From the NCBI GenBank assembly GCA_035635735.1, contig DASQAM010000281.1, positions 1 through 32,172 of the forward strand: a stretch of DNA of 32,172 nt. Reading direction: 5' to 3'. Positions within the stretch are counted from its first letter, which is position 1. The number at the start of each line of letters is the position of its first letter. The translations under genes were made by a program, and so were the position numbers. The notes beneath the pieces are model-generated. The model was given only the letters and a program-made list of their open reading frames with translations. It was not told the DNA's origin and ran no database searches. The stretch is from Gemmatimonadales bacterium. GTDB taxonomy: Bacteria > Gemmatimonadota > Gemmatimonadetes > Gemmatimonadales > GWC2-71-9. Positions 5,262-25,738 of the stretch are shown here, piece after piece.

Positions 5262-5941
5262 TCACCTTCTCGGGTCTCGACGGAGCCGGCAAGTCCACGC
5301 TGATCGAGTGGCTCAGGGACACGCTCGAGCGACAGAATCACCCCGTCGCCGTGTTCCACATGAACGATCATGTGGGTGCCTACGCGTACCTGCGGGCGCT
5401 GCGGGATCGCTGGTTCGGCGGGCCGCCGGCGGCGCCGGACGCCGATGGCGACGCGGGTGCTCCAGCGGCGCGGTCCAGTCTACGGGAGCGCATCTGGCGC
5501 CTCCGCATCGCCATCGTCTGGAACAAGCCACTGCGGCGCTTGCTCTATCTCTTCGACCTGGTGGTGTTCTGGTGCTACCGCCTCCGGATCGAAACGGCGC
5601 AACGGCGGATCCTGATCATGGACCGCTACTTCTACGACACCCTCGTGGACGTCTCGGACGGTCGGCACTGGTTCTGGATTCGGCTGCTGGAGCGGATCAC
5701 GCCGACCCCGGAAGTGCCGGTGCTCCTCGACATCAGCCCCGAGGAATCGTTCAACCGGAAGGGAGAATACTCGGTCGAATACCTGCGGGCGCGCTGGGTC
5801 GCCTACCGGACGGTCTTCCCGTGGGTTCGCGCAGCGGTCACGCTTCCCAATCGCGACCTGAGCGCAGCGAAGGCCGCGCTGCGGACGATCGTGATGGAGC
5901 GGTTGGGGGACAATGGGGAGGCCGCCGAACGTGCGCGATGA
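5255..5941 (+). CDS. Thymidylate-kinase-like P-loop kinase
   Basis: The GTG start overlaps the upstream stop (GTGCTGA). N-terminus is LITFSGLDGAGKSTLIEWL (Walker A) and a DRY motif is present (ILIMDRYFYDTL). Confidence 0.75.
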   Translation: MLITFSGLDGAGKSTLIEWLRDTLERQNHPVAVFHMNDHVGAYAYLRALRDRWFGGPPAAPDADGDAGAPAARSSLRERIWRLRIAIVWNKPLRRLLYLFDLVVFWCYRLRIETAQRRILIMDRYFYDTLVDVSDGRHWFWIRLLERITPTPEVPVLLDISPEESFNRKGEYSVEYLRARWVAYRTVFPWVRAAVTLPNRDLSAAKAALRTIVMERLGDNGEAAERAR

Positions 5942-6968
5942 ACGTGCGCAGGCACGCCTCCTGCTGCGGCTGCTGCTGAACGGCGATCGCCCGCCCATCG
6001 CGCGCGTGGACTGGCCTGCCCTGCTCCACCTGGCCCGCACCAACGGCGTCGTGATCCGCAGCGCCGACCTGTTGATGGCGCAGAACGTGACGCTGCCGCC
6101 GGCCTTCGCGAACAGCGTGGTGCGGGAGCGGCAGCGCGTGCAGGACGCGATCGGCCTGGTGCGCCAGGTCAGCCGGATCTGCACCGCGCACGGGATCGAG
6201 TTTCTGTTCGCCAAGGCGTTTCAGCACTACCCCGACCTGGGCGGCGACCTCGATCTGCTCGTGCTGGCTCGCGCCGCGGAAGTGGACGCCCTGCTCGCTC
6301 GCGAGCTGTCAGCCACCGTCGCGCCCCGGGATCTCGCCGGCTGGGTCGCCGGGAGCGTCACCTTCCGCGTTCGCGACGGGCTGCCGCCCCTGGACGTGCA
6401 ACATGGACGGATCGGGGCCGTCGGTGAACACCGGGCGTACGCCGTCGCGCTCGTGCGGAATCACCGGCAGATCGTGATCGACGGAACCGAGTGCGCGGTG
6501 CCCTGGCCGGAAGACCAGATCGTGCTCCAAGGCGTGCAGCGGATCTACGGGCGTCGGTCCCTGCGGTTGTCCGACGTCGCGTACACGATCGCGTCCCTGC
6601 GCGATCCGCTCGACTGGCCGTACGTCCTCAGCACGGCCCGCCGCATCGGCGTGCTGCCCGGCTTGGGCTGCTACCTGAGCTACGTCGAGCAGATCCACGG
6701 CGAGCTGTTCGGTGGCCCGCTCGTCCCGCAGCAGGTGCGCGACCGCCTGCCGCTCGCGGGGTGGGGCCGGGTGGAGTTCATGCGCGGGGCGTATCGGTTC
6801 CCGGCGCTGCGCGTGAACGCGCGGCTGTACCTCAAGCAGTTGGTCGCCGGGCTGTGGACCGCAAACTGGGATCGCGCGGCGCGATTGTGCCTGCTGCCGC
6901 TCGTGGGCGCGGCGCTGGCGGCCGGGCGCGTCGGCGCCGTGTCGTCGCGCTCGCTGGAGTCCGCGTGA
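5913..6968 (+). CDS. Uncharacterised nucleotidyltransferase (PF14907 / NTP_transf_5-like)
   Basis: Start is ATG 5913 or the in-frame GTG 5931; both overlap the upstream gene end (5941). Motif IEFLFAKAFQHYPDLGGDLDLLVLARAAEVDALL. It ends in a GTGA overlap with the next gene. Confidence 0.65.
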   Translation: MGRPPNVRDERAQARLLLRLLLNGDRPPIARVDWPALLHLARTNGVVIRSADLLMAQNVTLPPAFANSVVRERQRVQDAIGLVRQVSRICTAHGIEFLFAKAFQHYPDLGGDLDLLVLARAAEVDALLARELSATVAPRDLAGWVAGSVTFRVRDGLPPLDVQHGRIGAVGEHRAYAVALVRNHRQIVIDGTECAVPWPEDQIVLQGVQRIYGRRSLRLSDVAYTIASLRDPLDWPYVLSTARRIGVLPGLGCYLSYVEQIHGELFGGPLVPQQVRDRLPLAGWGRVEFMRGAYRFPALRVNARLYLKQLVAGLWTANWDRAARLCLLPLVGAALAAGRVGAVSSRSLESA

Positions 6969-8173
6969 GCACCGCGCGCACGGCCGATTTCCTGATCGTC
7001 GGTGGCGGCGTCATCGGCCTCACGATCGGCCTGGAGTTGAAGCGCCGCCGTCCGGACGCAGCCGTCACGCTGATCGAGAAGGAGGACGCCTGCGGTATGC
7101 ACGCGAGCGGGCGCAACAGCGGCGTGCTGCATGCCGGCTTTTACTATACGGCGGACTCGCTGAAGGCCCGCTTCACCAAGGCGGGGAACCGCGCGTGGAG
7201 CGCCTATTGCGAAGCGCGCGGGCTCCGCATCAATCGCTGCGGCAAGCTGGTCGTGGCTCGCAGCGCCCAGGAGTTGGCCGGATTGGACGAGCTGTCGCGC
7301 CGGGCCCGGGCCAACGGCGTCGAGCTCGCGGCGCTCACCGCCGACGAGGCGCGTCGCATCGAACCGCGCGTGCGCACCCACGAGCGCGCGCTGTTTTCCC
7401 CGACCACGGCCTCGGTAGACCCCGCTGAGCTGATCGCGGCGCTGACGACCGACGCGCTCGCGCTCGGCCTCACGATCCGCACCGCGACCGCGTACCGCGG
7501 GACGACGCGAGGGGCCGTACGGACTTCCGCTGGACGGTTTGCCGCCGGCTACGTGATCAACGCCGCGGGGCTGTATGCCGATCGCATTGCCCGCGACTAC
7601 GGCTTCGGCGAGCGGTACCGCATCCTGCCGTTCCGCGGCCTGTACCTCCAGGGCAACGGCGGCAGTCGGCCGCCGCGGACGCACGTCTATCCGGTGCCGG
7701 ATCTTGGGCAGCCGTTCCTGGGTGTGCATTTCACCGTCACGGTCACCGGCCACGCGACGATCGGGCCCACGGCCATTCCCGCGTTCTGGCGCGAGCACTA
7801 CGGCGGGATGGCGAACTTCGACCCGCGCGAGTGCGCGGAAATCCTCGCCTGTGAGGCGGGCCTGCTGCTCTCCAACGAGGGTGATTTTCGGTCACTGGCG
7901 TGGAGCGAGGTGCGCAAGTACAGCCGGCGCCGGCTGGTCCGCCTCGCCGCCGAGCTGGTGGAAGGGACGGAGCCCGCGGCGTATCGCCGCTGGGGCCCCG
8001 CGGGGATCCGCGCGCAGCTGTTCGATCGCCAGACCCGCAGGCTCGAGATGGATTTCCGCTACGAGGGCGACGACCGCTCCTTCCACGTGCTCAACGCCGT
8101 GTCGCCGGGCTTCACCTGTGCCCTGCCCTTCGCGGCCCACGTGACCGACTGCATCGAGCGGCTCCGCGCATGA
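6965..8173 (+). CDS. lhgO: L-2-hydroxyglutarate oxidase-like FAD-dependent oxidoreductase (DAO family)
   Basis: GTG 6965 forms a GTGA overlap; the track ORF 6491-8173 is N-terminally over-extended. Motifs: FLIVGGGVIGLTIG (FAD Rossmann), HASGRNSGVLHAGFYYTADSLKA, ILPFRGLY, YPVPDLGQPFLGVHFT, PAGIRAQL, NAVSPGFT. From memory these run colinear with E. coli LhgO/YgaF along the whole length. Confidence 0.75.
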   Translation: MSTARTADFLIVGGGVIGLTIGLELKRRRPDAAVTLIEKEDACGMHASGRNSGVLHAGFYYTADSLKARFTKAGNRAWSAYCEARGLRINRCGKLVVARSAQELAGLDELSRRARANGVELAALTADEARRIEPRVRTHERALFSPTTASVDPAELIAALTTDALALGLTIRTATAYRGTTRGAVRTSAGRFAAGYVINAAGLYADRIARDYGFGERYRILPFRGLYLQGNGGSRPPRTHVYPVPDLGQPFLGVHFTVTVTGHATIGPTAIPAFWREHYGGMANFDPRECAEILACEAGLLLSNEGDFRSLAWSEVRKYSRRRLVRLAAELVEGTEPAAYRRWGPAGIRAQLFDRQTRRLEMDFRYEGDDRSFHVLNAVSPGFTCALPFAAHVTDCIERLRA

Positions 8174-9420
8174 TCTCGGCCCCCGCCCTCGTGGCGCCTC
8201 CGTCGCTCGCGCGCGAGCGCGTGCTGGTGCTGGACGCCCACACCAACCAGGCGCTGGCATGCGCCCGCTCGCTCGGCCGCGCCGGTCACGAGGTGTTCGT
8301 CGCGAGCCATCGGTTGTGGCCGCTCGCCGCCTGGTCGACCTATTCCCGCGGCCGGTTCCGGCTGGCGGGCGAGTCGGTCGAGGCGTTCGCCGAGCTGCGC
8401 GCCTGGGCGGGCGAGCGTGGCGTGACGGTCGTGCTGCCGCTCACCGAGCGCGCCTGCCTGCTCTGCAACGCGGAGCGCCACGCATGGGAGGCCCTGGGCA
8501 TCGTGGTGGGGTGCGGCCCGGACGAAATGTTGCTGCGGGCATTCGACAAGGCGGAGACGGCGCGCTACGCCACGGCCAGCGGCGCCGCGCTGCCCCCGAC
8601 CAAGGCGCCCCGATCGCTCGCCGAGTGCCGGGCGGCGGCCCAAGCGGTGGGCTTTCCCTGCGTCGTCAAGCCGCGGTTCAGCAACGTCCACGATGGCTTC
8701 GTGTTCCAGCCGGGAGAGTCGGCGCGCTACGTCGGCCATCCGGACCAGCTCGACGCAGCGATCGAAGCGACGCGACAGGGCGATCGCTGGCCCCTGATTC
8801 AGGGATTCGTGCCCGGCGCGGGCAAGGGGGTGTTCGCGCTGTGTAACCACGGCGAAGCCGTGGCCTGGTTCGCCCACGAGCGGTTGCGGGACGTCCGCCC
8901 GTCGGGCTCCGGCAGCAGCTTGCGCCGGGCCATCGCGCTCGACCCGCGGCTGCGCGCGCCGGCGGAGCGTCTGCTGCGCCAGATGCAATGGCACGGCCCG
9001 GCGATGGTCGAGTTCCGCGACGACGGTGTCAACGCACCGTACCTGATCGAGGTGAACGGCCGTTTCTGGGGCTCGCTACAGCTCGCCGTCTCGGCCGGCG
9101 TGGATTTTCCGCACCTCTGGCTGGCGCTGCTCCGCAATCACAGGCTCCCCCCCTCCCGCGGCTACGTCGAGGGCGTGACGCTGCGGTGGCTCTGGGGAGA
9201 CGTGAAACGCTTCCTCTACATCCTCGCCGGGGCACCGCGGGGGTATCCGGGTCCCTACCCGAGCGTCTGGCAAGGTGTGCGGGAGCTGTTGGGCCCGCAG
9301 CCGCGAGGCACCCTGAACGAAACCTGGACCGCCGGCGACCGCTGGCCCGTCCTAGGGGAGGTCGTCCAAGGGGTGCGCGAGCTCGTGATCCGGTTGCTGC
9401 GGCGCGGCGCGCCGCCCGTC
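8170..9420 (+). other. Domain: ATP-grasp
   Basis: Motifs FPCVVKPRFS..., GFVPGAGKGVFAL, MVEFRDDG..PYLIEVNGRFWGSL (E-x-N). Boundaries are approximate. Confidence 0.75.
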
Positions 9421-11577
9421 CCCGCGCCGGTGTCCATGGATGCGTCCCACGCCCTGCGCGTCCTCATGCTCACGCCTGACTGGCCCACGCCGGATCGCCC
9501 CCGCACGACCAATTTCATCAAGCGCCAGGCGGAAGCGCTGCGGGCCGCGGGGGCCCATATCGACGTCTTCCATTTCGCCGCCGAGCAGCGGCTCTGGAAC
9601 TATCTGCGCGCGTGGCGCGCCGTGCGCCGCCGCCTCGCCACGGGACGCTACGACCTCGTCCACGCCCAATTCGGGCAGAGCGGCCTCGTGGCGTTGCCCA
9701 AACGCGTACCTCTCGTGGTCACGTTCCGCGGCAGCGACCTGTTGGGCATCGTGAGCGACAAGACCGGCCGTCATACCTGGCGGGGCCGCGTGGCGCAGCG
9801 GTGTTCCCGCATGGTTGCGCGCCTGGCGGACGCCGTGATCGTGGTGTCCGAGCACATGAAGGCGCAGCTCCCCGCCGCCGTGCGCCCGACCGTGATCCCG
9901 TCCGGCCTCGACCTGAAGCTGTTTCATCCGATTCCCCGCGACGAGGCGCGGCGGCGGCTGGGGTGGTCGCCCGGCCGGCGCGTCGTGCTGTTCGTCGGCC
10001 GACCGTTTCAAGCACGCAAGCGGCACAGCCTCGCTCGCGATGCAGTGGCGCTCCTCAACCGCTCCCTCCCCGCAGAGCTGGTGGTCGCCTGGGGCGTGCC
10101 CCACACCGAGATGCCGGTCTACATGAGCGCGGCCGACGTGCTGGTCTGCACGTCGATGCAAGAAGGGTCTCCCAACGTCGTCAAAGAAGCACTCGCGTGC
10201 GATCTGCCGGTGGTCTCGGTGCCCGTGGGGGACGTGGCGCTGCGTCTCCAGGGGGTCGCGGGATGCGAGCTGTGCGCCGACGACCGGCCCGAGACGATCG
10301 CCGCCGCGCTCGAGCGCGTCCTGCGCCGCGACCAACGCATCGACGGTCGCGACGCAGTCCGACCGCTGGACGAGGAGTTGCTGACCCAGCAGGTCCTGGA
10401 CATCTACCGGTCGGTCGTCAACGGTCACGCCCTCGACCGGCGAGGGCTCGGGAAGGGCCGCTTGACGGTACGCAAGGCGTCGCCGTCCGAAGAGCTCGAG
10501 TGGAACACGTTGGTGCAGCGGTTCGACCACTGCCGCATCGCCCATACGCGCGCGTGGCTCCGCTCGCTCGAAGCCTCCGGCTGCGGCCAGCCACTCTACC
10601 TCGTGTTCGAGCGGGATCACGAGATCGTAGGCTGTCTGCCCGGTCTCCTGGTGCGGTTCGGCCCGCTCCGCTTGTTCGGCTCCCCATTGCCGGGGTGGCA
10701 AACCGTCAGCATGGGTCCGGTGTTCGACGAGCGCCGGGTTTCTGCGGCGGACCTCGTCGCCACGCTGGTGCCGTTCCTCCGTCACCGCTACGGCATCCAC
10801 CACATCGAGCTGATGTGCAGCCATCTGGATCCCGCTGCCATGCAGGCCGCGGGCTTCCGGGGCGACGCCGTCACCACCTACCGGGCGCCGCTCGCTGCGG
10901 ACGAGGCCACGACGATGAAGGCCATGAAGGACAGCACGCGGCGCAATGTGCGACGCGCGATCAAGCTCGGCCTCGTCACCCGATTCGAAACCGAGGAGTC
11001 CTTCGTGGACGAGCACTACTCCCAGATCAAGGAAGTCTACGCCCGCCGCGGCTTCAGCGTGCCGTTCGGTAAACGGCGGGTGCTGGAGTTCTTTCGCCAC
11101 ATGAAGGCAGCCGGCAGCCTGCTGGCAATCGCCGTCTACCTCGAAGACGGGGGGCCGTGCATCGCGACGGGCATGTTCACCGTGCACGGCCGCGAGCTGC
11201 TGCTGTCGATGTGGACCCATCGCACCCGGTACCGCTGGTACCGGCCGACGGAGCTGATGACGTGGACGGTCATGCAAAAGGCGATGGCGCTGGGGTGCGA
11301 CAACTTCGATTTGATGGGCCGCGGTGATTTCAAGGCCAAGTTCGGCGCGACCCCGGACGCGAGCAAGCGCCGTTGGGTGTGGAGCCGTTACGCCTGGCTC
11401 ACCGCGGCGCGCGATCTGGCCGAGAAGGGCTACCGCTGGCAGCAAGGCATCCGCGGCCGCTTGGCCCGGCTGACGTCCACATCCCTGCCGCCCAGCCCGG
11501 TCGAAGCCGGCCAGGTGGAGGATGAGCAGCCTGCGCGGTCGCCCAGCCGCGTCCCCGTGGAGACCACCCATGCGTGA
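8170..11577 (+). CDS. Tri-domain fusion: ATP-grasp ligase + GT1 (GT4-like) glycosyltransferase + FemAB/CelD-like GNAT (PF13480-type) acyl/aminoacyl-transferase
   Basis: ATG 8170 forms an ATGA overlap with the lhgO-like stop; the track ORF 7900-11577 is over-extended. One uninterrupted frame of 1135 aa, with short Pro/Gly-rich linkers between the domains. Confidence 0.8.
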   Translation: MISAPALVAPPSLARERVLVLDAHTNQALACARSLGRAGHEVFVASHRLWPLAAWSTYSRGRFRLAGESVEAFAELRAWAGERGVTVVLPLTERACLLCNAERHAWEALGIVVGCGPDEMLLRAFDKAETARYATASGAALPPTKAPRSLAECRAAAQAVGFPCVVKPRFSNVHDGFVFQPGESARYVGHPDQLDAAIEATRQGDRWPLIQGFVPGAGKGVFALCNHGEAVAWFAHERLRDVRPSGSGSSLRRAIALDPRLRAPAERLLRQMQWHGPAMVEFRDDGVNAPYLIEVNGRFWGSLQLAVSAGVDFPHLWLALLRNHRLPPSRGYVEGVTLRWLWGDVKRFLYILAGAPRGYPGPYPSVWQGVRELLGPQPRGTLNETWTAGDRWPVLGEVVQGVRELVIRLLRRGAPPVPAPVSMDASHALRVLMLTPDWPTPDRPRTTNFIKRQAEALRAAGAHIDVFHFAAEQRLWNYLRAWRAVRRRLATGRYDLVHAQFGQSGLVALPKRVPLVVTFRGSDLLGIVSDKTGRHTWRGRVAQRCSRMVARLADAVIVVSEHMKAQLPAAVRPTVIPSGLDLKLFHPIPRDEARRRLGWSPGRRVVLFVGRPFQARKRHSLARDAVALLNRSLPAELVVAWGVPHTEMPVYMSAADVLVCTSMQEGSPNVVKEALACDLPVVSVPVGDVALRLQGVAGCELCADDRPETIAAALERVLRRDQRIDGRDAVRPLDEELLTQQVLDIYRSVVNGHALDRRGLGKGRLTVRKASPSEELEWNTLVQRFDHCRIAHTRAWLRSLEASGCGQPLYLVFERDHEIVGCLPGLLVRFGPLRLFGSPLPGWQTVSMGPVFDERRVSAADLVATLVPFLRHRYGIHHIELMCSHLDPAAMQAAGFRGDAVTTYRAPLAADEATTMKAMKDSTRRNVRRAIKLGLVTRFETEESFVDEHYSQIKEVYARRGFSVPFGKRRVLEFFRHMKAAGSLLAIAVYLEDGGPCIATGMFTVHGRELLLSMWTHRTRYRWYRPTELMTWTVMQKAMALGCDNFDLMGRGDFKAKFGATPDASKRRWVWSRYAWLTAARDLAEKGYRWQQGIRGRLARLTSTSLPPSPVEAGQVEDEQPARSPSRVPVETTHA
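9454..10416 (+). other. Domain: GT1-family glycosyltransferase
   Basis: LRVLMLTPDWPTP...FIKRQAEALRAAG and an EX7E motif (MQEGSPNVVKEALAC). By-eye alignment suggests about 70% aa identity to the standalone GT1 at 12772-13827. Confidence 0.8.
10462..11430 (+). other. Domain: FemAB/CelD-like GNAT (Acetyltransf_6-type)
   Basis: The pattern EWNTLV....AHTRAWLRSLE...YLVFERDHEIVGCLPG...MKDSTRRNVRRAIKLG...YRPTELMTWTVMQKAMALGCDNFDLMG is the same architecture as the standalone gene 15675-16700. Boundaries are approximate. Confidence 0.6.
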
Positions 11578-12775
11578 CACGCGGCCGCTCGCATGCGTCA
11601 TGGGTGATATGGACCTGCTTCGTCCGCTCGGGCTGGCGCGCATACCCTGCGTGGTCGTCGCGCCGCCCGGGGCCGCACCCTGCTTCTCGCGCTTCACGCG
11701 CGCCACGCTCCCGTGGGTGGACACATGGGATCATCCGGACGAGCAGGTGGACACGTTGGTCCGCTTCGCGTCCGCGCAGCCCGAGCCTCCGGTCCTGTTC
11801 TATCAGGAGGACCGGGAGCTGCTGCTGGTCTCCCGCTACCGCGAGCGCCTGCGCCCGGCGTTCCGGTTCGCCATCGGCGACGCGACGCTGGTGGAAGATC
11901 TGGTCGACAAGGGGCGGTTCCAGGCCCTCGCGTGGCGGCTGGACCTGCCCGTGCCCGTCGCGCGCCCGCTCGACCTCACCCGGCAGCCGCGCCCCGGGGA
12001 CGTCGACGTGCCCTTTCCGATGGTGATCAAGCCGCTCACGCGCCGCACCGACCGCTGGACTCCGCTGGGCGGCCCGGGCAAGGCCCTGCGGGTCGAGAGC
12101 CTCGAGGTCCTGCAGCAGCTGTGGCCCCGCGTCGTGGTGGCGAACGTGCCCCTGCTGGCGCAGCAGCTGGTGCCCGGTCCGGAAACGGACGTCGAGAGCT
12201 ACCACGTCTACGTGGACGAGTCGGGGGAGATCGTGGGCGAGTTCACCGGCCGAAAGATCCGGACCTGGCCCCTGGAGCTCGGCCACAGCACCGCGCTCGT
12301 GATCACCGACTCGCCCGAGGTGGCCGAGCTGGGCCGAGCGGTGGTGCGACGGCTGGAGCTGCGGGGGGTCGCGAAGCTCGACTTCAAACGCGGGCCCAAG
12401 GGCCGGCTCTACCTGCTGGAGATCAACCCCCGCTTCACCCTGTGGCATCATCCGGCGGCGCTGGCGGGCGTGAACGTGCCGGCGCTGGTGTACGGGGACC
12501 TTGCCGGCCTGCCCCGACCCGCCGCGCGACGCGCTCACCCGGGCGTGCGGTGGTGCAAGATCTGGCACGACGCCCCCGCCGCTCGCAGCGCGGGCATGCC
12601 GTTCCTCCGGTGGCTGCCTTGGGCGCTCCGGTGCGAAGCCAAGAGCGCCTTCAGCTGGGACGACCCACTTCCCCTGTTCGGCGCGGCCGCGTGGGCGGCG
12701 GCGCGACGGTTCGCCGCGTCGCTCCGCGCGCTGCTCCCGCCGGCCGCGCGCCCGGTCAAGGCCCGTCTGCCATGA
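11570..12775 (+). CDS. ATP-grasp domain protein (carboxylate-amine ligase-like)
   Basis: ATG 11570 overlaps the upstream stop by 8 nt. Motifs FPMVIKPLTRR, LLAQQLVPG, VAKLDFKRGPKGRLYLLEINPRF. Confidence 0.75.
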   Translation: MRDTRPLACVMGDMDLLRPLGLARIPCVVVAPPGAAPCFSRFTRATLPWVDTWDHPDEQVDTLVRFASAQPEPPVLFYQEDRELLLVSRYRERLRPAFRFAIGDATLVEDLVDKGRFQALAWRLDLPVPVARPLDLTRQPRPGDVDVPFPMVIKPLTRRTDRWTPLGGPGKALRVESLEVLQQLWPRVVVANVPLLAQQLVPGPETDVESYHVYVDESGEIVGEFTGRKIRTWPLELGHSTALVITDSPEVAELGRAVVRRLELRGVAKLDFKRGPKGRLYLLEINPRFTLWHHPAALAGVNVPALVYGDLAGLPRPAARRAHPGVRWCKIWHDAPAARSAGMPFLRWLPWALRCEAKSAFSWDDPLPLFGAAAWAAARRFAASLRALLPPAARPVKARLP

Positions 12776-13827
12776 CGCCGATCCGCGTGCTCATGATCAC
12801 CAGCGCCTGGCCCACTCCTGGGGCGCCCCGGACGACGCATTTCATCAAGCGCCAGGCGGACGCGCTGCGCGCGGCGGGCGTCGAGGTGGACGTGCTCCAC
12901 TTCCAGGGCCAGCGGCCGGACCGGTATCTCCTCGCCTGGCTGCGCGCCCGCCCGCGGCTCGACGCGAGGCGCTACGATCTGGTCCATGCGCAGTTCGGCC
13001 AAAGCGGCCTGCTGGCGCTTCCCAAGCGCCTGCCGCTGGTGGTGACATTCCGAGGGAGCGACGTCTTGGGAATCGTGAGCGACGCGGACGGCCGCTACAC
13101 CTGGAAGGGACGCGTGGTACAGTGGCTCTCCCGTCTGGTAGCCCGGCGGGCCGACGCCGTGATCGTCGTATCCGACCACATGAAGCGGTCCCTGCCCTCC
13201 TCGGTTTCCGCAGCCGTCATCCCTTCCGGTCTGGATCTGGAGCGGTTCCGGCCGCTGCCTCGCGACGACGCGCGGCGCGTTCTCGGCCTGCCGCTCGACC
13301 GGCGCTACGTGCTGTTCGTCGGCCGGCCCACGCAGGCTCGGAAACGGGGCGACCTGGCGCGCCGGGCCGTGGAGCTGCTCGATCGATCCTATCCGGCGGA
13401 GCTCATCACCGCGTGGGGAGTGCCCCACGGCGATATCCCGCTCTACATGAACGCCTGTGACGTGCTGCTCTGCACCTCGATGCAGGAAGGGTCCCCCAAC
13501 GTGGTCAAAGAGGCCCTGGCGTGTGATACGCCGGTCGTCTCGGTCTCGGTGGGCGACGTGCCTACGCGGCTCGCGGGGATCGAGGGATGTGAGCTGTGTG
13601 CCGACGACCGACCGGAGACGATCGCAGCGGCGCTGGAGCGCGTGCTCCGCCGCGGCCAGCGGGTCCGGGGCCGCGAGACGGTCGCGACGCTGGACGAGGC
13701 ACTCCTCACCCAGCAGGTGATCGCCATCTATCGCTCGGTGCTCCACCGCGGGCGGGGCGGCGCGCCCTCTCAGCCCGTGCCACCCCCACGCCCTCCGGGC
13801 GCCGCCCTCGCGGGGACGCCGTCGTGA
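12772..13827 (+). CDS. GT1-family glycosyltransferase (paralog of the GT1 domain at 9454-10416)
   Basis: ATG 12772 forms an ATGA overlap; the track ORF 11713-13827 is over-extended. Motifs IRVLMITSAWPTPGAPRTTHFIKRQADALRAAG and EX7E (MQEGSPNVVKEALAC). Confidence 0.85.
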   Translation: MTPIRVLMITSAWPTPGAPRTTHFIKRQADALRAAGVEVDVLHFQGQRPDRYLLAWLRARPRLDARRYDLVHAQFGQSGLLALPKRLPLVVTFRGSDVLGIVSDADGRYTWKGRVVQWLSRLVARRADAVIVVSDHMKRSLPSSVSAAVIPSGLDLERFRPLPRDDARRVLGLPLDRRYVLFVGRPTQARKRGDLARRAVELLDRSYPAELITAWGVPHGDIPLYMNACDVLLCTSMQEGSPNVVKEALACDTPVVSVSVGDVPTRLAGIEGCELCADDRPETIAAALERVLRRGQRVRGRETVATLDEALLTQQVIAIYRSVLHRGRGGAPSQPVPPPRPPGAALAGTPS

Positions 13828-14867
13828 CCGCCACGCCTGCGTTCGTCTCCATCGTCGTCCCGTGCCGCAACGAGGAACGCTACCTCGGGGCCTGCCTCGA
13901 CTCGATCCTGGCGGGCGACTATCCGCCGGATCGTCTCGAAGTGCTCGTGGTGGACGGCATGAGCGATGATCGGACGCGAGAGATCCTCGGCCGCTACACG
14001 GCGCGCCATCCCTTCATCCACCGGCTGGACAATCCGCAGCGGATCACGCCCGCCGCGCTCAACGTGGGGATCCGGGCCGCGCGGGGAGACGTCATCATGC
14101 GGATGGATGCGCACGTCCTGTACCCCTCGACCTACGTCTCCCAGCTCGTCGCGGCGCTCGAGGAGACCGGGGCCGATTGCGTGGGTGGGGTCATCGAGAC
14201 CCTCCCCGCCGACGACTCCGCCACCGCGCGGGCCATCGCCCTTGGGATGTCTCACCCCCTCGGGGTCGGCAACTCGTATTTTCGCATCGGCTCGCGGGAG
14301 CGGCGCTGGGCCGACGCCGTGTCGTTCCCCTGCTACCGACGCGACGTGTTCGACCGTATCGGCCTGTACGACGAGGAGCTGGTCCGCAATCAAGACGACG
14401 AGTTCGATCTCCGCCTGATCAAGCACGGCGGGCGCGTCCTCCTGGTGCCGGAGGTGGTGGCGCGCTACTACGCCCGGCGCTCGCTGCGGCAGGTGGCCCG
14501 CATGTTCTACCAGTACGGCTACTTCAAGCCGTTGGTGGTCCGGAAGCTCGGTCGCGTCATGACCGTGCGGCCTCTCGTCCCCACCGCGCTGCTCGTGAGC
14601 CTGCTCGTGTCGGCTGTGACGGGGCTCTGGTGGACGCCGGCGGCCTGGGCGGGCGCCGCGATCTTGGGGTGCTACACAGCCGTGGTGCTGGGGGCCGCAT
14701 TCGGGGGCGTGCGGCGGCTCGGCGTTCGGGCCGGCGCCGCGCTGACGACCGTGTTTCCGGTGATCCATTTCAGCTACGGCCTAGGTTTCCTGCACGGCAT
14801 CGCCGTGCACATGCTCCGACTCACACGCCGGCGGCCGCACGCGGCCGCTATCTCGTTGTCCCGGTAG
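13824..14867 (+). CDS. GT2-family glycosyltransferase with C-terminal TM segments
   Basis: GTG 13824 forms a GTGA overlap. Motifs FVSIVVPCRNEERYL and VVDGMSDDRT (DxD), plus a hydrophobic C-terminal ~100 aa. Confidence 0.85.
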   Translation: MTATPAFVSIVVPCRNEERYLGACLDSILAGDYPPDRLEVLVVDGMSDDRTREILGRYTARHPFIHRLDNPQRITPAALNVGIRAARGDVIMRMDAHVLYPSTYVSQLVAALEETGADCVGGVIETLPADDSATARAIALGMSHPLGVGNSYFRIGSRERRWADAVSFPCYRRDVFDRIGLYDEELVRNQDDEFDLRLIKHGGRVLLVPEVVARYYARRSLRQVARMFYQYGYFKPLVVRKLGRVMTVRPLVPTALLVSLLVSAVTGLWWTPAAWAGAAILGCYTAVVLGAAFGGVRRLGVRAGAALTTVFPVIHFSYGLGFLHGIAVHMLRLTRRRPHAAAISLSR

Positions 14868-14883
14868 CCGAGGAGACTCCCGC

Positions 14884-15678
14884 TTGTCCACGCGCACACC
14901 GCGGATCGCGAGCTTCGGCTACCACGAGGTGACGGACGATCCCACGATGTCGGGCTTCCAGCGGCCGGCCGCTCTCCCGTTCAAGCACACGCCCCGTGCG
15001 TTTGCCGAGCACCTCGCGACTGTCGCCGCCGGACCGTTCGTCCCCGGCCTCATCGGGGATATCGACTTCACCCGCCCCGGCCGGCACGTCCTGCTCACCT
15101 TCGACGACGGGGGTAAGAGCGCCGTTTACGTCGCGGACCAGCTGTCCCGGCGGGGGTGGAGGGGGCACTTCTTCATCGTCACCAGCTTGATTGGCACCCG
15201 CACGTTCCTCGATGCGGCGGACATCCGGTACCTGCGTAGCAGCGGCCATGTCGTCGGCAGCCATTCGCACACCCACCCCGACATCTTTCGCGACGAGACG
15301 CCCCAGCGGATGATCGAGGAGTGGCGCACGAGCTGCGGGATCCTGGCCGACCTGCTGGGCGAGCCGTGCAGCATAGCCTCGGTGCCCGGCGGCGACATCT
15401 CGACCGCCGTGCTGCGCTCGGCGGCGCCCGCCGGCCTGCGCTACCTGTTCACGTCCGAGCCGTGGACGGCGCCCCGACAAATGAACGGCACCTGGATCCT
15501 CGGGCGCTTCGGCCCGAAGGTCGGTACGTCTCCGGCTCGTGTGGGCGCGCTCGTGCGGTTCCACGGCTGGCAGAGCGCCCTCCTCGAGCGTCGCCTGAAA
15601 GGGGTGGTGCGGCGCAGTCTTCCGGCCCTGTACCGCTTCTACGTCCGGCGCACTACCCAGGACTGGGTGCCTCAATGA
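14884..15678 (+). CDS. Polysaccharide deacetylase (CE4 / NodB-homology)
   Basis: TTG start with GAGGAG 8 nt upstream (14871-14876). Motifs LLTFDDGG and GSHSHTHP. Confidence 0.8.
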   Translation: MSTRTPRIASFGYHEVTDDPTMSGFQRPAALPFKHTPRAFAEHLATVAAGPFVPGLIGDIDFTRPGRHVLLTFDDGGKSAVYVADQLSRRGWRGHFFIVTSLIGTRTFLDAADIRYLRSSGHVVGSHSHTHPDIFRDETPQRMIEEWRTSCGILADLLGEPCSIASVPGGDISTAVLRSAAPAGLRYLFTSEPWTAPRQMNGTWILGRFGPKVGTSPARVGALVRFHGWQSALLERRLKGVVRRSLPALYRFYVRRTTQDWVPQ

Positions 15679-16700
15679 GCGTCGCCGTCGAGGACTTCCA
15701 GGGGGCTCCAGCCGAGTGGGACGCTTTCGTGCGCGCCCAGCCGCAATGGACGCAGGTCCATCTGTTCGGATGGAAGACCGTCATGACACGTGCGCTGGGG
15801 CACGAGTGCCTATATCTCGCCGCACGCGACCCAGCCGGTCGCCTCGTGGGCGTGCTGCCGCTGGTACGAGTGCGGAGCCTGGCCTTCGGACACTACCTCG
15901 TGTCCATGCCGTTCCTGAACCAGGGCGGGCCGCTCGGCAGCGACGCGGCCGTGCAAGCGCTCGTCGCGCGGGCCATAGAGTTGGCCCAGCGAGACAAGGC
16001 CAAGCTGCTCGAGCTCCGCAGCCGCGGCCCGCTCCCTATCACCCTTCCGGTCAGTCATCGCAAGGTGGGCGTCGTGCTCGACTTGGTCCCGGGCGCGCCG
16101 GAGGCCGTGTGGCAGGAGATCAGCCCCAGGCTCAAGGGCTACGTGCGGCGTACGAAAAAAGGCGGCGTGACCGTGCGGTTCGGGCCAGATCAGATCGGCG
16201 CCTTCTTCCAGGTGTTCTCGCGGCACATGCATGAGCTCGGAACACCCACGCATCACCGCCGGCTGTTCGAAACGATCGCGGAAGTGTTCCCCGAGGATAC
16301 GTGGTTCGGCTGCGCCTACTACGAGGGACGGCCCGTCGCGTGCGGGTGCGCCCTACGGTGGGCGGGCGAGGTGGAGGTCACGTGGGCGTCGGCCATCGCC
16401 AGCGCCCCGGACCTGCGGCCGAACGTGCTGCTGTACTGGGCGTTCATGGAGCGGGCGGCCACGGAAGGGCTGCGCACCTTCAACTTCGGCCGCTCGACTC
16501 CGGGCTCCGGCCCCCACGAATTCAAGCGCCGCTGGGGATCCCGCGATGAGCCATTGTGGTGGTACGACCTGTCTGCCAACGGGGCAACCACGCCCTCCCC
16601 TCAGGATCCGGCCTTGGCTTGGGGCCCCCGGCTGTGGAAGCGGTTGCCGCTTGCGCTGGCGACGGCTTTAGGCCCACGCATCGTCCGCTGTCTCCCCTAA
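15675..16700 (+). CDS. FemAB/CelD-like GNAT acyl/aminoacyl-transferase, similar to the FemAB-related proteins of PEP-CTERM-type EPS loci
   Basis: ATG 15675 forms an ATGA overlap; the track ORF 15321-16700 is over-extended. Pattern EWDAFV....QVHLFGWKTVM...LAARDPAGRLVGVLPL...YVRRTKKGG...PNVLLYWAFMERAATEGLRTFNFGRS..GSGPHEFKRRWG. Confidence 0.7.
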   Translation: MSVAVEDFQGAPAEWDAFVRAQPQWTQVHLFGWKTVMTRALGHECLYLAARDPAGRLVGVLPLVRVRSLAFGHYLVSMPFLNQGGPLGSDAAVQALVARAIELAQRDKAKLLELRSRGPLPITLPVSHRKVGVVLDLVPGAPEAVWQEISPRLKGYVRRTKKGGVTVRFGPDQIGAFFQVFSRHMHELGTPTHHRRLFETIAEVFPEDTWFGCAYYEGRPVACGCALRWAGEVEVTWASAIASAPDLRPNVLLYWAFMERAATEGLRTFNFGRSTPGSGPHEFKRRWGSRDEPLWWYDLSANGATTPSPQDPALAWGPRLWKRLPLALATALGPRIVRCLP

Positions 16701-16903: not shown

Positions 16904-18877
16904 ATGACCTCCGCACGGCTCGAACTGGAGCAACTCGTCTATAGCGTCGCGTGGCCGGTGCGGGCGCTCGCCGCCGTGACTCACACTCTGGACCCGCTGC
17001 TGCGGAGCTCTATGGCGCGGCGGGTGGCGAAAGCCGGAGTCGACTTCTTCTGTGCGGTGGGGGCTGTGGTGGCCGCGGTGGCCGTGGGCGAGGGCGTGAA
17101 CCGCTTCGGCCCGGGCAACACCGCGACCCTCGCCGGAATAGTCGGGCTGCTGGTGGTCGCCGCCGACACGCTGTGCGGCAGCTATCGCACGATCTGGCGC
17201 TATACGAGTCTCAAGGAGGTTATGGCGGTCGGGTTCTCGAGCCTGGTGGTGCTCGGAGTGCTGCTCGCCGGACAATCCCTGGGCTTTCTCGACCTGTCCG
17301 GCGCGACCAACCTGCTGATCGCGCTGCTGCTGCTGTTTCTGTGCGTCGGCGCGCGCGCTCTGCGCCGCTGGTCGGTGGCCGATGCCAAGCGGCGGGAGCG
17401 CCTGGCGCCGGGTGGCCTGGTCCCCTCGCGCCGGGTCCTCATCGCCGGGGCCGGGGAGCACGGCCTCTCGATCGGGCGTGAGCTGCTGGTGAGTGCGGCG
17501 GCCGGTGTGGAGCTCGTGGGGTTCCTGGATGACGATCCGGCGAAGCTCGGCGCCGCGCTGAACGGTGTTCCCGTCCTCGGACGGCTGCAGGACGCCCTCG
17601 CGCTGGCGGAACGGCACCACGTGAGCGAGGTGATCGTCGCCATGCCCTCGGCCCGACCCGACGCGGTCCGCACGTTTGGCCTACAGCTCGAGGGCGCGGG
17701 TGTGCGGGTTCGCGCCGTGCGCGGCATCGAGCGGTTCGTGCTGGGCGGCGACCTCCATCGCCCGGGATCCGCGACGCTGCGCGACTTGCTCGACGCCGGG
17801 TCGCCCGTTCTCAAACACCAGGGCGCCGCCGACGGCGCGGGTCGCGTGCTGGTCACCGGCGGTGCCGGGTTCATCGGCTCACACCTGACGCGCATGCTGC
17901 TGGAGCGCGGGTACCACGTTCGAGTGCTGGACCGCTTTGATTACGGCCGCGCCGGCGTCGAAGGGTTGCACCACCCCCGCCTCGAAGTCATCCAGGGAGA
18001 CATCTGCAGCAGTCGAGACGTGAGCCGAGCGCTGCGCGACGTGCACGGTGTCCTGGCCCTCGCCGCGATCGTCGGTGACCCCGCGTGCAACCTCGATCCC
18101 GAGGAGACCATCAATCTCAATTACACCGCGACCAAAGTGCTCATCGAGGCGTGCAACTTTTACGGCGTGCGCCGCCTCGTGTTCGCCTCGAGCTGCAGCG
18201 TGTACGGTGCCAGCAACCTCGACCTCTTGACCGAGCGGTCGCGGCTGAACCCGGTGTCGTTGTACGCGAGGACTCGGGTCTTGAGCGAGAACCTCCTGTT
18301 CGACCGCGCGGGCGACGTCGAGCCCGTAGTGCTGCGGTTGTCCACGGTGTTCGGCCTCTCGCCGCGCATGCGCTTCGATCTCGTGGTGAACACCCTCACG
18401 GTGCGCGGCGTGGTGGAGGGTCGAATCCCGATCCAGGGCGGCAACCAGTGGCGACCCAACGTTCATTGCCGGGACGCGGCGCGCGCGTTCATCGCCGCGC
18501 TGGTGGCACCGGCCGAGCGGGTCGCCGGTGAAGTGTTCAACGTGGGCGGCGACGCCCTGAACCACCGCATCGCGGACCTCGGGGAAATGGTCGCGGGCAT
18601 CATCCCCGGCGTCGAAGTCATCCGCCAGCCGGATGTGGCCGATCCTCGTGACTATCGCGTCTCGTTCGAGAAGATCCGCACGGTCCTGGGGTTTGAGCCG
18701 GAATTCACCGTGGCCGAGGGAATCCGCGAGGTCGCGGCCGCGGTGCAGAGTCAGCCGGCGCTCCGCAGCTACCAGGATCCGGCGTTCCACAATGTGCACG
18801 CGCTGCGCCAGACCTTTGCGACGCCGCGGCGGCGGCGGGGGGATGTGGCGCCGCACGCCAGCCTCGCCCGGGCGTGA
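16904..18877 (+). CDS. Membrane-anchored NAD-dependent sugar epimerase/dehydratase: WbpM/PglF/CapD-like N-terminal TM + CoA-binding-like module fused to an extended-SDR domain
   Basis: About 4 N-terminal TM segments. The middle module reads VLIAGAGEHGLSIGREL...VGFLDDDPAKLG..NGVPVLG...VIVAMPS. The SDR domain has VLVTGGAGFIGSHL and FASSCSVYG. The catalytic motif reads YARTR (YxxxR) instead of YxxxK. Confidence 0.8.
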   Translation: MTSARLELEQLVYSVAWPVRALAAVTHTLDPLLRSSMARRVAKAGVDFFCAVGAVVAAVAVGEGVNRFGPGNTATLAGIVGLLVVAADTLCGSYRTIWRYTSLKEVMAVGFSSLVVLGVLLAGQSLGFLDLSGATNLLIALLLLFLCVGARALRRWSVADAKRRERLAPGGLVPSRRVLIAGAGEHGLSIGRELLVSAAAGVELVGFLDDDPAKLGAALNGVPVLGRLQDALALAERHHVSEVIVAMPSARPDAVRTFGLQLEGAGVRVRAVRGIERFVLGGDLHRPGSATLRDLLDAGSPVLKHQGAADGAGRVLVTGGAGFIGSHLTRMLLERGYHVRVLDRFDYGRAGVEGLHHPRLEVIQGDICSSRDVSRALRDVHGVLALAAIVGDPACNLDPEETINLNYTATKVLIEACNFYGVRRLVFASSCSVYGASNLDLLTERSRLNPVSLYARTRVLSENLLFDRAGDVEPVVLRLSTVFGLSPRMRFDLVVNTLTVRGVVEGRIPIQGGNQWRPNVHCRDAARAFIAALVAPAERVAGEVFNVGGDALNHRIADLGEMVAGIIPGVEVIRQPDVADPRDYRVSFEKIRTVLGFEPEFTVAEGIREVAAAVQSQPALRSYQDPAFHNVHALRQTFATPRRRRGDVAPHASLARA

Positions 18878-18935
18878 GCGGATTCGCTGCACGGCGCACC
18901 GGGCGGCCCCCCGCGACCGAGACGGTTCGAACAGG

Positions 18936-20399: not shown

Positions 20400-20406
20400 C
20401 CCGACG

Positions 20407-21153
20407 ATGAACTGCAAGGCCCTGTTCTACCCGGAAAGCCGTTTCGGTGGCTTCACCGACAGCGACGCCTACGTCGTCTTCTACGCCCGGGTCAACGCGC
20501 TCCTGACGCCCGACTCGGTGGTGCTGGATATCGGTTGCGGACGCGGCGCCTATGCGGACGACCCGGTGGCGTTCCGGCGGCAACTGCGGATTCTCAAGGG
20601 CAAAGGCCGCCGGGTCATCGGGATCGACGTCGACCCGGCGGCGGCGGCGCATCCATTCCTCGACGAGTTCCGCCGGCTCGAGCCGGCGAACGGCCGCTGG
20701 CCGGTGGACGACGCCTCCATCGACGTCGCCGTGAGCGTCAGCGTCCTGGAGCACGTGGAGGACCCGGAGCATTTCTTCGCCGAATGTCGCCGCGTCATCA
20801 AGCCGGGGGGCTACCTCTGCCTGCGGACCACGAACGTCCTGAGCTATTTCGGCGTCGTCGCGCGCCTGATCCCGAACCGCTACCATGCCGCGATCATTCG
20901 TCGCGTGTCCGAGAGTCCCCGCGACGAGGTGGACGTCTTCCCCACGCTGTACCGCTGCAACACCCTCTTCAAGGTGCGACGGTTGTTGCGCCGGTTCGGG
21001 TTCGAGCACTACGTGTACGGTTACCAATCGGAGCCCTCGAGTCTCTCGTTTTCGCGCTTCTTCTATTTCTGGGGCGTCATCCACCAACACATCGCGCCCA
21101 CCATGCTGAAGCCCACCATCTTCGCCTTTGCGCGACGGGGACAGGCGGGGTAG
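20407..21153 (+). CDS. Class I SAM-dependent methyltransferase
   Basis: Motif I VVLDIGCGRGAY and a post-I acidic residue (GIDVD), plus LEHVEDP and IKPGGYLCL. Confidence 0.8.
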   Translation: MNCKALFYPESRFGGFTDSDAYVVFYARVNALLTPDSVVLDIGCGRGAYADDPVAFRRQLRILKGKGRRVIGIDVDPAAAAHPFLDEFRRLEPANGRWPVDDASIDVAVSVSVLEHVEDPEHFFAECRRVIKPGGYLCLRTTNVLSYFGVVARLIPNRYHAAIIRRVSESPRDEVDVFPTLYRCNTLFKVRRLLRRFGFEHYVYGYQSEPSSLSFSRFFYFWGVIHQHIAPTMLKPTIFAFARRGQAG

Positions 21154-21166
21154 ACAGGGAGCACCC

Positions 21167-25710: not shown

Positions 25711-25738
25711 AAAATCCATTCCTCGATTCGGGTCCGCC

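Follow-up and report, generated by a model that had tools for sequence, protein, structure and literature searches.

A natural but rare fusion of ATP-grasp, GT4, and Fem-like GNAT domains in a surface-polysaccharide gene cluster from the Gemmatimonadales

The window analyzed here, a stretch of 32,172 nucleotides from a soil bacterium, an uncultured member of the Gemmatimonadales (GenBank assembly GCA_035635735.1, contig DASQAM010000281.1), carries a Wzx/Wzy-type surface-polysaccharide locus. Its features are the following.

157-3969, + strand: Wzx-type flippase in one gene with P-loop domains and an unknown region
3966-5261, + strand: Wzy_C polymerase/ligase-like membrane protein
5255-5941, + strand: P-loop kinase-like gene (Kin), a conserved upstream partner
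5913-6968, + strand: NTP_transf_5 gene (NT5), a conserved upstream partner
6965-8173, + strand: L-2-hydroxyglutarate-oxidase-like FAD enzyme, a conserved upstream partner
8170-11577, + strand: tri-domain gene, with ATP-grasp, GT4, and Fem-like tandem GNAT in one protein of 1135 aa (Pfam and NCBIfam)
8170-9420, + strand: its ATP-grasp domain (AGF, aa 1-417; AlphaFold fold, invariant residues)
9421-10433, + strand: its GT4 (GT-B) cassette, absent in L004/P0010 and 71.5% identical to GT4b
10434-11577, + strand: its Fem-like tandem-GNAT domain (GNF; fold and profile matches)
11570-12775, + strand: standalone ATP-grasp (AG2), 28% identical to AGF
12772-13827, + strand: standalone GT4 (GT4b), paralogous to the fused GT4 by an old duplication
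13824-14867, + strand: GT2 glycosyltransferase (Pfam Glycos_transf_2, 95 bits)
14884-15678, + strand: CE4 polysaccharide deacetylase (Pfam Polysacc_deac_1, 66 bits)
15675-16700, + strand: standalone FemAB-family protein (GNb) of the XrtA/PEP-CTERM-associated type (TIGR03019)
16904-18877, + strand: membrane-anchored NAD epimerase/dehydratase
ending at 20399, + strand: beta-helix protein
20407-21153, + strand: methyltransferase
21128-23179, + strand: AsnB-type amidotransferase

The separate ATP-grasp, GT1, GT2, CE4, and FemAB-like genes that an earlier note on this DNA had placed 3' of the fusion are all confirmed by Pfam and NCBIfam; its "GT1" is Pfam Glycos_transf_1, which corresponds to CAZy family GT4. 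In most loci Kin and NT5 lie upstream of the ATP-grasp gene, at times they are fused to domains of the ATP-grasp/GT4/GNAT set (P0036, P0087, P0095, and P0101), the GT2-CE4 adjacency is conserved across most Gemmatimonadales loci, and the gene order of the 16904-23179 section is repeated in L008. No transmembrane segments were found in the fused or separate ATP-grasp, GT4, GNAT/FemAB, GT2, and CE4 enzymes. The CE4 deacetylase, whose best NCBIfam match is a weak one to HfsH, was also searched for a signal peptide, with none found, and it is a likely candidate for the source of a free sugar amine. The window holds no UDP-sugar dehydrogenase or aminotransferase that would define the sugar, and no exosortase or PEP-CTERM gene.

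The reading frame of the tri-domain gene is open from 7900 to 11577, and its start codon, the ATG at 8170, shares ATGA with the stop of the upstream gene. Pfam places three domains above their cut-offs in the 1135-aa protein, namely ATPgrasp_Ter at aa 215-324, Glyco_transf_4/Glycos_transf_1 at aa 430-719, and Acetyltransf_6 at aa 922-1054, and these calls confirm that an ATP-grasp, a GT1, and a FemAB-like GNAT share one frame, as had been claimed; the FemAB score of Pfam is borderline (24.9 bits vs. a cut-off of 24). This protein is soluble, and a search for hydrophobic or TM-like segments found none in it. We consider it a genuine, natural but rare fusion of three intact cytoplasmic enzymes: a ligase, a glycosyltransferase, and a Fem-type transferase.

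The top 11 PDB fold matches of the GNF model (pLDDT 88.2) are Sbb17/Sba18, FemX, and FemA, with TM-scores, normalized to the PDB chain, of 0.59-0.78 and Foldseek E-values of 1e-12 to 1e-15; acyl-CoA-using tandem GNATs (2wpw and VipF) appear lower in the list. Its only profile matches are Sba18 (E = 8e-5), Sbb17, FemA, and FemX, all of them weak (E-values of 8e-5 to 1e-2). The F-K of its GDFKAKFG segment, near the end of the second GNAT domain, is invariant and, by its place in that domain, is a candidate counterpart of the catalytic residues Lys305 of FemX and Phe328-Lys329 of DhpH (PMC12945691). GNF thus resembles FemX, FemA, Sbb17, and Sba18 in its tandem-GNAT fold and in a weak but specific profile similarity, and from these matches it would be expected to depend on aminoacyl-tRNA. 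It differs from these four enzymes in that its sequence identity to them is only 11-18%, in its fusion to an ATP-grasp and, in some cases, to a GT4 as well, and in lying in a polysaccharide locus, whereas Fem-type transferases act in peptidoglycan or antibiotic pathways. A sugar amine as the acceptor has a precedent in Orf11, which glycylates the amine of an amino sugar with Gly-tRNA (PMC12945691). The AlphaFold model of AGF (pLDDT 92.9) has a classic ATP-grasp fold, with K127, K167, E281, E294, N296, and R298 invariant; its top PDB match is 2pn1, a protein of no assigned function that gives no cue to specificity, and the next matches are biotin carboxylases, CPS, PurK/PurT, and Ddl.

We infer that the tri-domain locus most likely acts in the cytoplasm to add a sugar, and amino acids in amide linkage, to a Wzx/Wzy repeat unit. 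Acting on the undecaprenyl-linked unit in the cytoplasm, the GT4 would add the sugar, the Fem-like domain would then use aminoacyl-tRNA to aminoacylate a sugar amine, which CE4 may have set free, and the ATP-grasp domains would make further amide bonds, either between a carboxylate and an amine or by amidation of a uronic acid. The product would be a polysaccharide decorated with amino acids or short peptides, and the fusion would hold sequential steps together. The tri-domain enzyme is a useful, not revolutionary, lead on how the amino-acid decoration of sugars may come about.

A different chemistry, which we judge possible but rather unlikely, would make the GNAT an acyl-CoA-dependent N-acyltransferase and the ATP-grasp a Cj1438-like amidoligase joining a uronic acid to a small amine, which the kinase, nucleotidyltransferase, and FAD enzymes encoded upstream would make. 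The Acetyltransf_6 assignment, the presence of 2wpw and VipF in the fold list, and the precedent of Cj1438 all agree with it, as does a hint of a uronic-acid polymer in the NCBIfam matches, in which TuaC, from Bacillus teichuronic acid synthesis, is the top match of both GT4s, TuaB the second match of the flippase, and TuaG a weak match of the GT2. However, the Tua matches reach 65-142 bits against equivalog cut-offs of 400-580, a family-level resemblance only, Pfam places the ATP-grasp outside the TupA-like family of Cj1438, and the top folds and the only significant profile matches of GNF are all aminoacyl-tRNA-dependent enzymes.

Cj1438, from the HS:2 capsule cluster of Campylobacter jejuni, is the closest characterized parallel to the tri-domain protein. 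It combines a GT2, a linker domain, and a TupA-like ATP-grasp amidoligase with GlcA as its substrate, and a paralogue of its GT domain with the same activity, Cj1434N, is encoded in the same cluster (PMC11800379). In both cases a polysaccharide locus encodes a glycosyltransferase and an ATP-grasp ligase as one physically joined protein, and the tri-domain protein may be likened to Cj1438 in that the ligase of the latter places an amide substituent on the sugar on which its GT then works. A paralogue of the fused GT within the cluster is also common to both systems, with an identity of 67% between the GT domains of HS19.11 and HS19.08 (PMC11800379) and of 71.5% here. The tri-domain protein differs in having a GT4 instead of a GT2, an ATPgrasp_Ter/CPS-like instead of a TupA-like ligase, the reverse domain order, an extra Fem-like GNAT domain, and a Wzx/Wzy context instead of ABC-transporter capsule synthesis. 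With this published precedent, the channeled addition of a sugar and its substituent, as proposed earlier, is plausible by analogy.

The earlier note had further read the locus as an ancient module duplication with later fusion or fission, which amounts to an en-bloc duplication of ATP-grasp, GT4, and GNAT in which one copy would have become fused and the split copy would have gained GT2 and CE4. The order ATP-grasp, GT4, ..., GNAT is indeed colinear in both sets and homology is detectable in all three pairs, but the identities are very unequal: BLASTP gives 27.9% for AGF and AG2 (140 aa, E = 5e-6) and 23.4% for GNF and GNb (145 aa, E = 2e-4), a divergence much stronger than that of the GT4 pair, just as had been noticed by eye. 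AG2 keeps the catalytic residues of AGF, differs at substrate-lining positions, and forms a separate deep family (NJ bootstrap 1.0); both families also occur in Acidobacteriota, in Pyrinomonadaceae loci that carry a fused AGF-GNAT, AG2, and a single GT4. GNb, whose branch is very long when the GNATs are set in a tree, reaches TIGR03019, a FemAB family associated with XrtA/PEP-CTERM systems and defined by exopolysaccharide-locus position (275.1 bits vs. a cut-off of 260.35), whereas GNF, with 64 bits vs. 260, is a distinct subfamily. In L005, a 65% relative, the tri-domain gene occurs with no split GT4 or FemAB nearby. Across 84 loci, AG2 goes with the fused-type GNAT and does not follow GT4b, being present in 16 of the 26 loci with GNF vs. 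1 of the 58 without it (Fisher p = 1e-9, with kinship among loci ignored). The two ATP-grasps, like the two GNATs, fall into separate deep subfamilies, each with its own distribution, which makes an en-bloc duplication improbable; the histories of the three pairs are unrelated.

What recurs across the 84 loci is a core of AGF and GT4, to which the fused-type GNAT and AG2 are an add-on; one AGF and one GT4 are found together in 48 of them. The architectures among 120 homologue matches (ATP-grasp fused to GNAT, 48; to GT4, 25; to another domain, 21; tri-domain, 12; another domain preceding the ATP-grasp, 11) make AGF a fusion-prone hub domain. An ATP-grasp followed by a GT4 is mostly separate from it (40 vs. 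12 fused), while one followed by a GNAT is mostly fused (17 vs. 4 separate). As for the suggested fusion and fission, both are frequent in the family of this gene.

The two GT4s align colinearly over 323 aa with one gap and 71.5% identity (BLASTP, E = 4e-151), very near the 70% estimated by eye, and the four identical blocks quoted in the earlier note are all present. Such similarity could suggest a recent duplication or gene conversion, as was then proposed, yet these blocks are catalytic and donor-binding motifs conserved throughout the family, nucleotide identity is 73% overall and 56% at third positions, the NG86 dS is 0.80, the longest identical run is 22 nt, and identity is spread evenly along the pair. 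Across genomes the orthologues of either copy cluster with one another, at 78-92% identity (L001, L007, and L008; for GT4b, 87.5% in L001 and 77.6% in L008) with a dN/dS of 0.12-0.19, and paralogues within a genome (68-74%) are no closer than fused and free paralogues between genomes (70-74%). A recent duplication or gene conversion is thus highly improbable; given the dS and the third-position identity, the two genes are true paralogues from an old duplication. Catalytic residues are intact in both, the E-x7-E motif of the fused GT4 (E665, E673) is invariant, and in NJ trees built on simple distances GT4b (clade bootstrap 0.995) is sister to the fused-GT4 clade with a bootstrap of 0.815.

The fusion is not an artefact, because 12 independent protein clusters of 61-100% identity, from JGI, ENA, NCBI, and Logan, show the same architecture; the three genome-collection loci that encode it (L007, L008, and L012) come from Gemmatimonadales or Gemmatimonadetes MAGs. 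Adjacent genes of the operon overlap by 4-8 nt and single-base errors could in principle merge their frames, but the junction error raised in the earlier note has practically no standing against clusters from different projects and assemblers that align through both junctions with conserved linkers, and against a GC3 coding signal unbroken along the ORF.

A close relative, L004/P0010, lacks exactly the window segment 9421-10433, and its flanks align on both sides, which delimits a GT4 cassette of 1013 nt within the ATP-grasp-GNAT linker. We favor, with some confidence as a whole, an account in which the core of the family is an AGF ligase that almost always adjoins, or is fused to, a GT4 of one orthologous group, and a subset of loci also has AG2 and the Fem-like tandem GNAT, the latter in most cases joined to AGF. 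In the lineage of the window, an old GT4 duplication would have left one copy as the linker cassette and the other as the free GT4b after AG2. It follows from this history that the apparent second module would be no duplicate of the first; it would consist of AG2 as companion to the fused GNAT, the paralogous GT4 of old date, and an unrelated FemAB of the PEP-CTERM type.

That the tri-domain form arose only once is uncertain, since in NJ trees on simple distances the monophyly of all fused GT4s has a bootstrap of only 0.565 and the two tri-domain clades never come out as sisters by their ATP-grasp domains (0 of 100 replicates), and its history is reticulate. Recombination among locus variants would reshuffle the ATP-grasp, GT4, and GNAT segments; the identity profile of L004 against the window is a mosaic, with upstream DNA 93-97% identical.

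The tri-domain protein is a genuine fusion and a rare form within a widespread, uncharacterised family of putative polysaccharide-decoration enzymes. Its gene lies within a co-directional operon that runs from about 157 to 23179 with gene overlaps of 4-8 nt, as defined by the ORFs present and by GC3 analysis of the reading frames, in a window with a G+C content of about 70%. The earlier note had described an ATP-grasp, a GT1 and a FemAB-like GNAT in one frame, followed by separate genes for an ATP-grasp, a GT1, a GT2, a CE4 deacetylase and a FemAB-like protein, and the Pfam and NCBIfam domain calls agree with this arrangement, the GT1 genes being named GT4 here. The genes considered are the following, where "~" marks a fusion.

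5255-5941, plus strand: P-loop kinase-like gene (Kin)
5913-6968, plus strand: NTP_transf_5 gene (NT5)
6965-8173, plus strand: FAD oxidoreductase
8170-11577, plus strand: tri-domain gene, 1135 aa, AGF~GT4~GNAT; Pfam ATPgrasp_Ter aa 215-324 (AGF), Glyco_transf_4/Glycos_transf_1 aa 430-719, Acetyltransf_6 aa 922-1054, FemAB borderline
11570-12775, plus strand: standalone ATP-grasp (AG2)
12772-13827, plus strand: standalone GT4 (GT4b)
13824-14867, plus strand: GT2
14884-15678, plus strand: CE4 deacetylase
15675-16700, plus strand: FemAB-family protein, above the TIGR03019 cut-off

A search of 5.8 billion proteins yielded, among the best 120 matches, 12 clusters with the tri-domain architecture, all with the same domain order, 1113-1151 aa in length and 61-100% identical. 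These clusters derive from separate assembly sources (JGI, ENA, NCBI and Logan) and align across both junctions, differing only in short variable linkers, which rules out the fusion being an artefact. The loci of the genome collection that carry the tri-domain gene (L007, L008 and L012) all belong to soil MAGs of Gemmatimonadales or Gemmatimonadetes. The best 150 matches in a library of 1.84 billion representatives at 50% identity contained neither a full-length tri-domain representative nor a further tri-domain lineage, and they added di-domain variants. One of these, P0121 (719 aa), is a GT4~GNAT protein that lacks the ATP-grasp and shares 61% identity with aa 428-1127 of the fusion; P0121 may represent a separate architecture or a gene cut off at a contig end. 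Our literature search, whose coverage did not extend to the amidoligase survey of Iyer et al. 2009, found no paper on the ATP-grasp~GT4~Fem-like architecture, and nothing on ATP-grasp with FemAB and exopolysaccharide or on FemAB with PEP-CTERM and exosortase. The observation is confirmed; its original interpretation is partly supported.

In L008 (QHVD01000151, Gemmatimonadetes AG12, positions 2656-3579), a 920-nt epimerase-like piece corresponding to window 17817-18743 is placed inside the ATP-grasp domain, next to a duplicate of window 9168-9288. Since the intact tri-domain protein P0005 matches the GT4 and GNAT part essentially exactly, the insert is probably a scaffold mis-join; it was treated as a probable mis-assembly and left out of the evidence.

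Judged from their conserved residues, the ATP-grasp, GT4 and GNAT domains all look catalytically intact. Against PF15632 (ATPgrasp_Ter, cut-off 29.1 bits), the fused ATP-grasp scores 38.7 bits and AG2 34.8 bits, and the two families share K127, K167, E281 (D in AG2), E294, N296 and R298 as conserved residues. The model of the fused ATP-grasp domain (pLDDT 92.9) has the three-subdomain ATP-grasp fold and matches, with a Foldseek probability of 1.00, 2pn1, biotin carboxylases, CPS, PurK/PurT and Ddl; the best match is 2pn1, a protein of unknown function, and the fold search, which returned generic ATP-grasp enzymes only, gave no hint of the substrate. As expected of CAZy GT4 enzymes, which are retaining glycosyltransferases of the GT-B type, both GT4 copies pass the Pfam models of the Glyco_transf_4 N-domain and the Glycos_transf_1 C-domain (60.7 and 42-44.5 bits), and the two glutamates of the E-x7-E motif, E665 and E673, are invariant in QEGSPNVVKEALA, a stretch that GT4b has too. 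The equivalog NF047684 for TuaC, a teichuronic acid GT, with a cut-off of 550 bits, is reached neither by the fused GT4 (65.4 bits) nor by GT4b (89.3 bits).

The GNAT model (pLDDT 88.2) has a tandem GNAT fold resembling FemX/FemA, and its 11 best Foldseek matches in the PDB are all to transferases that depend on aminoacyl-tRNA, namely Sbb17/Sba18, followed by FemX and FemA (E 3e-15 to 3e-12); the matched Sbb17/Sba18 structures hold the amino-sugar substrate streptothrisamine. A GNAT-only profile gave as its four top matches Sba18 (E = 8e-5), Sbb17 (1e-3), FemA (6e-3) and FemX (0.012). The fused GNAT clearly passes Acetyltransf_6 (45.8 against 22), and for Pfam FemAB (PF02388) the whole-protein score is 24.9 against a cut-off of 24, with no single stretch passing. 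The pair F1054-K1055, located about 10 residues beyond the end of the HMM alignments, is invariant in the fused GNATs and the standalone FemAB. K1055 may be the counterpart of the catalytic lysine, comparably placed, of FemX (K305) and of DhpH (K329, after F328), and Orf11 uses Gly-tRNA to glycylate a sugar amine (PMC12945691).

The first interpretation of this locus was an ancient duplication of the whole module, and the three pairs of homologous domains do not share the history that it implies. By BLASTP, the two GT4s are 71.5% identical over 323 aa, close to the roughly 70% first estimated by eye, and share all four of the identical peptide blocks then quoted. The ATP-grasps are 27.9% identical over 140 aa and the GNATs 23.4% over 145 aa; the much greater divergence of these two pairs had been recognised. 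AGF and AG2 constitute two deep families (bootstrap 1.0), both also carried by Acidobacteriota; the two families keep their catalytic residues alike and differ at several pocket positions. The standalone FemAB protein passes the TIGR03019 cut-off of 260.35 (275.1 bits) whereas the fused GNAT fails it (64.5 bits), and a very long branch parts the two in the GNAT tree. In L005, a 65% relative, the tri-domain gene is accompanied by AG2, GT2 and CE4; over the 10 kb that precede this gene there is no free GT4 or FemAB, and directly downstream of it the operon stops. An en-bloc duplication of the module is not supported. The locus is a caution that colinear "duplicated modules" may be built from parts of unrelated history.

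The GT4 pair is the product of a true duplication, and the question is its age. The clade of fused GT4s and that of GT4b (window, L001, L008) are sisters with a bootstrap of 0.815, and together they nest within the GT4s of Gemmatimonadales, outside the Acidobacteriota/Alphaproteobacteria clade (support 0.905), so the duplication is lineage-specific. It is also old, since third-position identity is 56% and dS is 0.80 (nucleotide identity 73%, dN/dS 0.26). Each copy has its own orthologues, 82-92% identical for the fused GT4 and 78-88% for GT4b, with dN/dS of 0.12-0.19, and paralogues from the same genome are no closer than those from different genomes. A more recent duplication or gene conversion, as proposed in the earlier note, is rejected on these grounds. 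Conservation between the two GT4s does not differ between the N half, which binds the acceptor (70%), and the C half, which binds the donor (74%). In an 87% relative (L001/L002/L003, about 5405-7186 in L001 coordinates), the free GT4b and a methyltransferase form one protein of 593 aa; the nearest methyltransferase in the window (38% identical) is a separate gene at 20407-21153.

At the level of the family, AGF is a fusion hub that is joined to a variety of partners.

Architectures of AGF-containing clusters among the best 120 hits
AGF~GNAT: 48 clusters
AGF~GT4: 25 clusters
AGF~GT4~GNAT: 12 clusters
AGF with another C-terminal partner, e.g. GT2: 21 clusters
AGF with an N-terminal partner, e.g. 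AMP-ligase-like or kinase-like: 11 clusters

When the window proteins were mapped onto 84 non-redundant loci, the functional units were found to be a core (AGF and GT4) plus an add-on (GNAT and AG2), instead of the two parallel triplets, one fused and one split, that the window alone had suggested. Exactly one AGF and one GT4 are present in 48 of the 84 loci, the GT4s belonging to a single group with roughly 60-70% identity; the two genes are usually neighbours. Gemmatimonadales have the order Kin-AGF-GT4-GT2-CE4, and Pyrinomonadaceae often have Kin-NT5-(AGF~GNAT)-AG2-GT4. AG2 occurs in 16 of the 26 loci with a fused-type GNAT and in 1 of the 58 without it (Fisher p = 1e-9, uncorrected for phylogeny), this single locus being a truncated contig. 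AGF and the following GT4 are separate genes in 40 loci and joined in 12, and AGF and the following GNAT are joined in 17 loci and separate in 4; the occurrence of both states at both junctions indicates repeated fusion and fission, which bears out the later fusion or fission first envisaged.

In most loci Kin and NT5 lie ahead of the ATP-grasp gene, and in some cases they form fusions with GT4, GNAT or ATP-grasp domains (P0036, P0087, P0095, P0101; L061, L077). The matches of the kinase-like gene are confined to the P-loop segments of dTMP kinases, and the PDB holds no relative of NT5 by sequence. The loci L017, L019, L020 and L085, which come from Alphaproteobacteria, including Sphingomicrobium, and in one case from a Pseudomonadota MAG, have AGF~GNAT (two ORFs in L020), two GT4 genes and a second AGF-type ATP-grasp replacing AG2; as one GT4 of each pair falls into a basal clade of its own, an independent GT4 duplication seems to have taken place in them.

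The history of the fused gene itself is reticulate. Locus L004 encodes P0010, an AGF~GNAT protein whose two domains share 87% and 81% identity with the outer domains of the window protein, in the same gene context, with Kin, NT5 and the FAD oxidoreductase upstream and AG2 downstream. Its DNA aligns to window 5256-9420 and 10434-12595, the intervening 1013 nt of the GT4 domain being replaced by 17 nt, and its short linker matches both flanks of the cassette, while acidobacterial AGF~GNAT linkers are longer and unrelated. Identity between L004 and the window is 71-81% over 5256-5800, 93-97% over 5838-9138 and 76-83% beyond 9138, a mosaic that places a recombination breakpoint within the ATP-grasp coding region of the gene. 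The ATP-grasp tree joins P0010 to the window (bootstrap 1.0). Its place in the GNAT tree, among the clade-A tri-domain proteins, is weak, with clade support of 0.56 when it is included and 0.12 when it is not. The more parsimonious reading is that the cassette was lost, or replaced through recombination. A single origin of the tri-domain architecture is not established, as all fused GT4s are monophyletic with a support of only 0.565 and the two tri-domain clades are sisters in 0 of 100 replicates of the ATP-grasp tree. The locus family offers a natural experiment, with alleles that have or lack the GT4 cassette and junctions that are fused or split.

Little is known about how enzymes attach amino acids to the polysaccharides of bacteria, and, to our knowledge, Cj1438 of C. 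jejuni is the one well-studied case of a GT joined to an ATP-grasp, from families that differ from those described here. It is the nearest characterised analogue of the fusion. Cj1438 consists of a GT2 fused to a TupA-like ATP-grasp amidoligase, in which GlcA is amidated before the GT acts, and its GT domain has a paralogue within the same cluster (PMC11800379). The two proteins share the fusion of a GT to an ATP-grasp, the location in a polysaccharide locus and the duplicated GT. In contrast, the present protein has a GT4 instead of a GT2, carries an extra Fem-like domain, and its Pfam results lack a TupA-like ATP-grasp. By analogy, it may work like Cj1438 without being a homologous member of that family.

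Unlike the flippase and the Wzy-like protein, which are membrane proteins, the fusion, AG2, GT4b, CE4 and FemAB proteins have no TM-like segments and, for this reason, are expected to act in the cytoplasm. The substrate would be a lipid-linked repeat unit, to which the GT4 would add a sugar; CE4 would then expose an amine, the Fem-like domain would aminoacylate it, and the ATP-grasp enzymes would form further amide bonds. We tentatively suggest, as a possibility that we rate below even chances, that the AGF-GT4 core with its Fem-like GNAT/AG2 add-on represents an uncharacterised pathway that is widely distributed among the Gemmatimonadota and Acidobacteriota of soil. Through aminoacyl-tRNA and ATP-grasp chemistry, this pathway would equip a surface polysaccharide of the Wzx/Wzy type with side chains, and possibly with cross-links, that consist of amino acids or short peptides and are made without the ribosome. 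If so, a peptidoglycan-like peptide logic would operate on an exopolysaccharide, with the tri-domain protein as its most integrated form. The natural fusions link ATP-grasp, GT4, Fem-like transferase, kinase-like protein and nucleotidyltransferase, and so provide a list of components for a decoration pathway that can be put to the test, in soil phyla that are abundant but uncultured.

Some neighbouring genes also deserve mention. The plus-strand ORF at 157-3969 (1270 aa) fuses a MOP/Wzx flippase (aa 38-497) to a stretch of unknown type of about 500 aa and to regions of the P-loop kinase-like/AAA kind (aa 892-979 and 1054-1226); the flippase, the middle stretch and the P-loop part are separate genes of 491, 518 and 226 aa in L005. 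The FAD oxidoreductase, which at 295.8 bits falls short of the L-2-hydroxyglutarate oxidase cut-off of 299, is limited to the sub-clade of the window (window, L004, L007 and L008), directly upstream of the fusion gene. Directly after the locus, on the minus strand (23149-28753), there are two large proteins with Ig repeats (Big_2/Big_1), one with a DUF1565/beta-helix region and the other with a phosphoesterase domain, followed by HflX, LEA_2 and MgsA/RarA genes.
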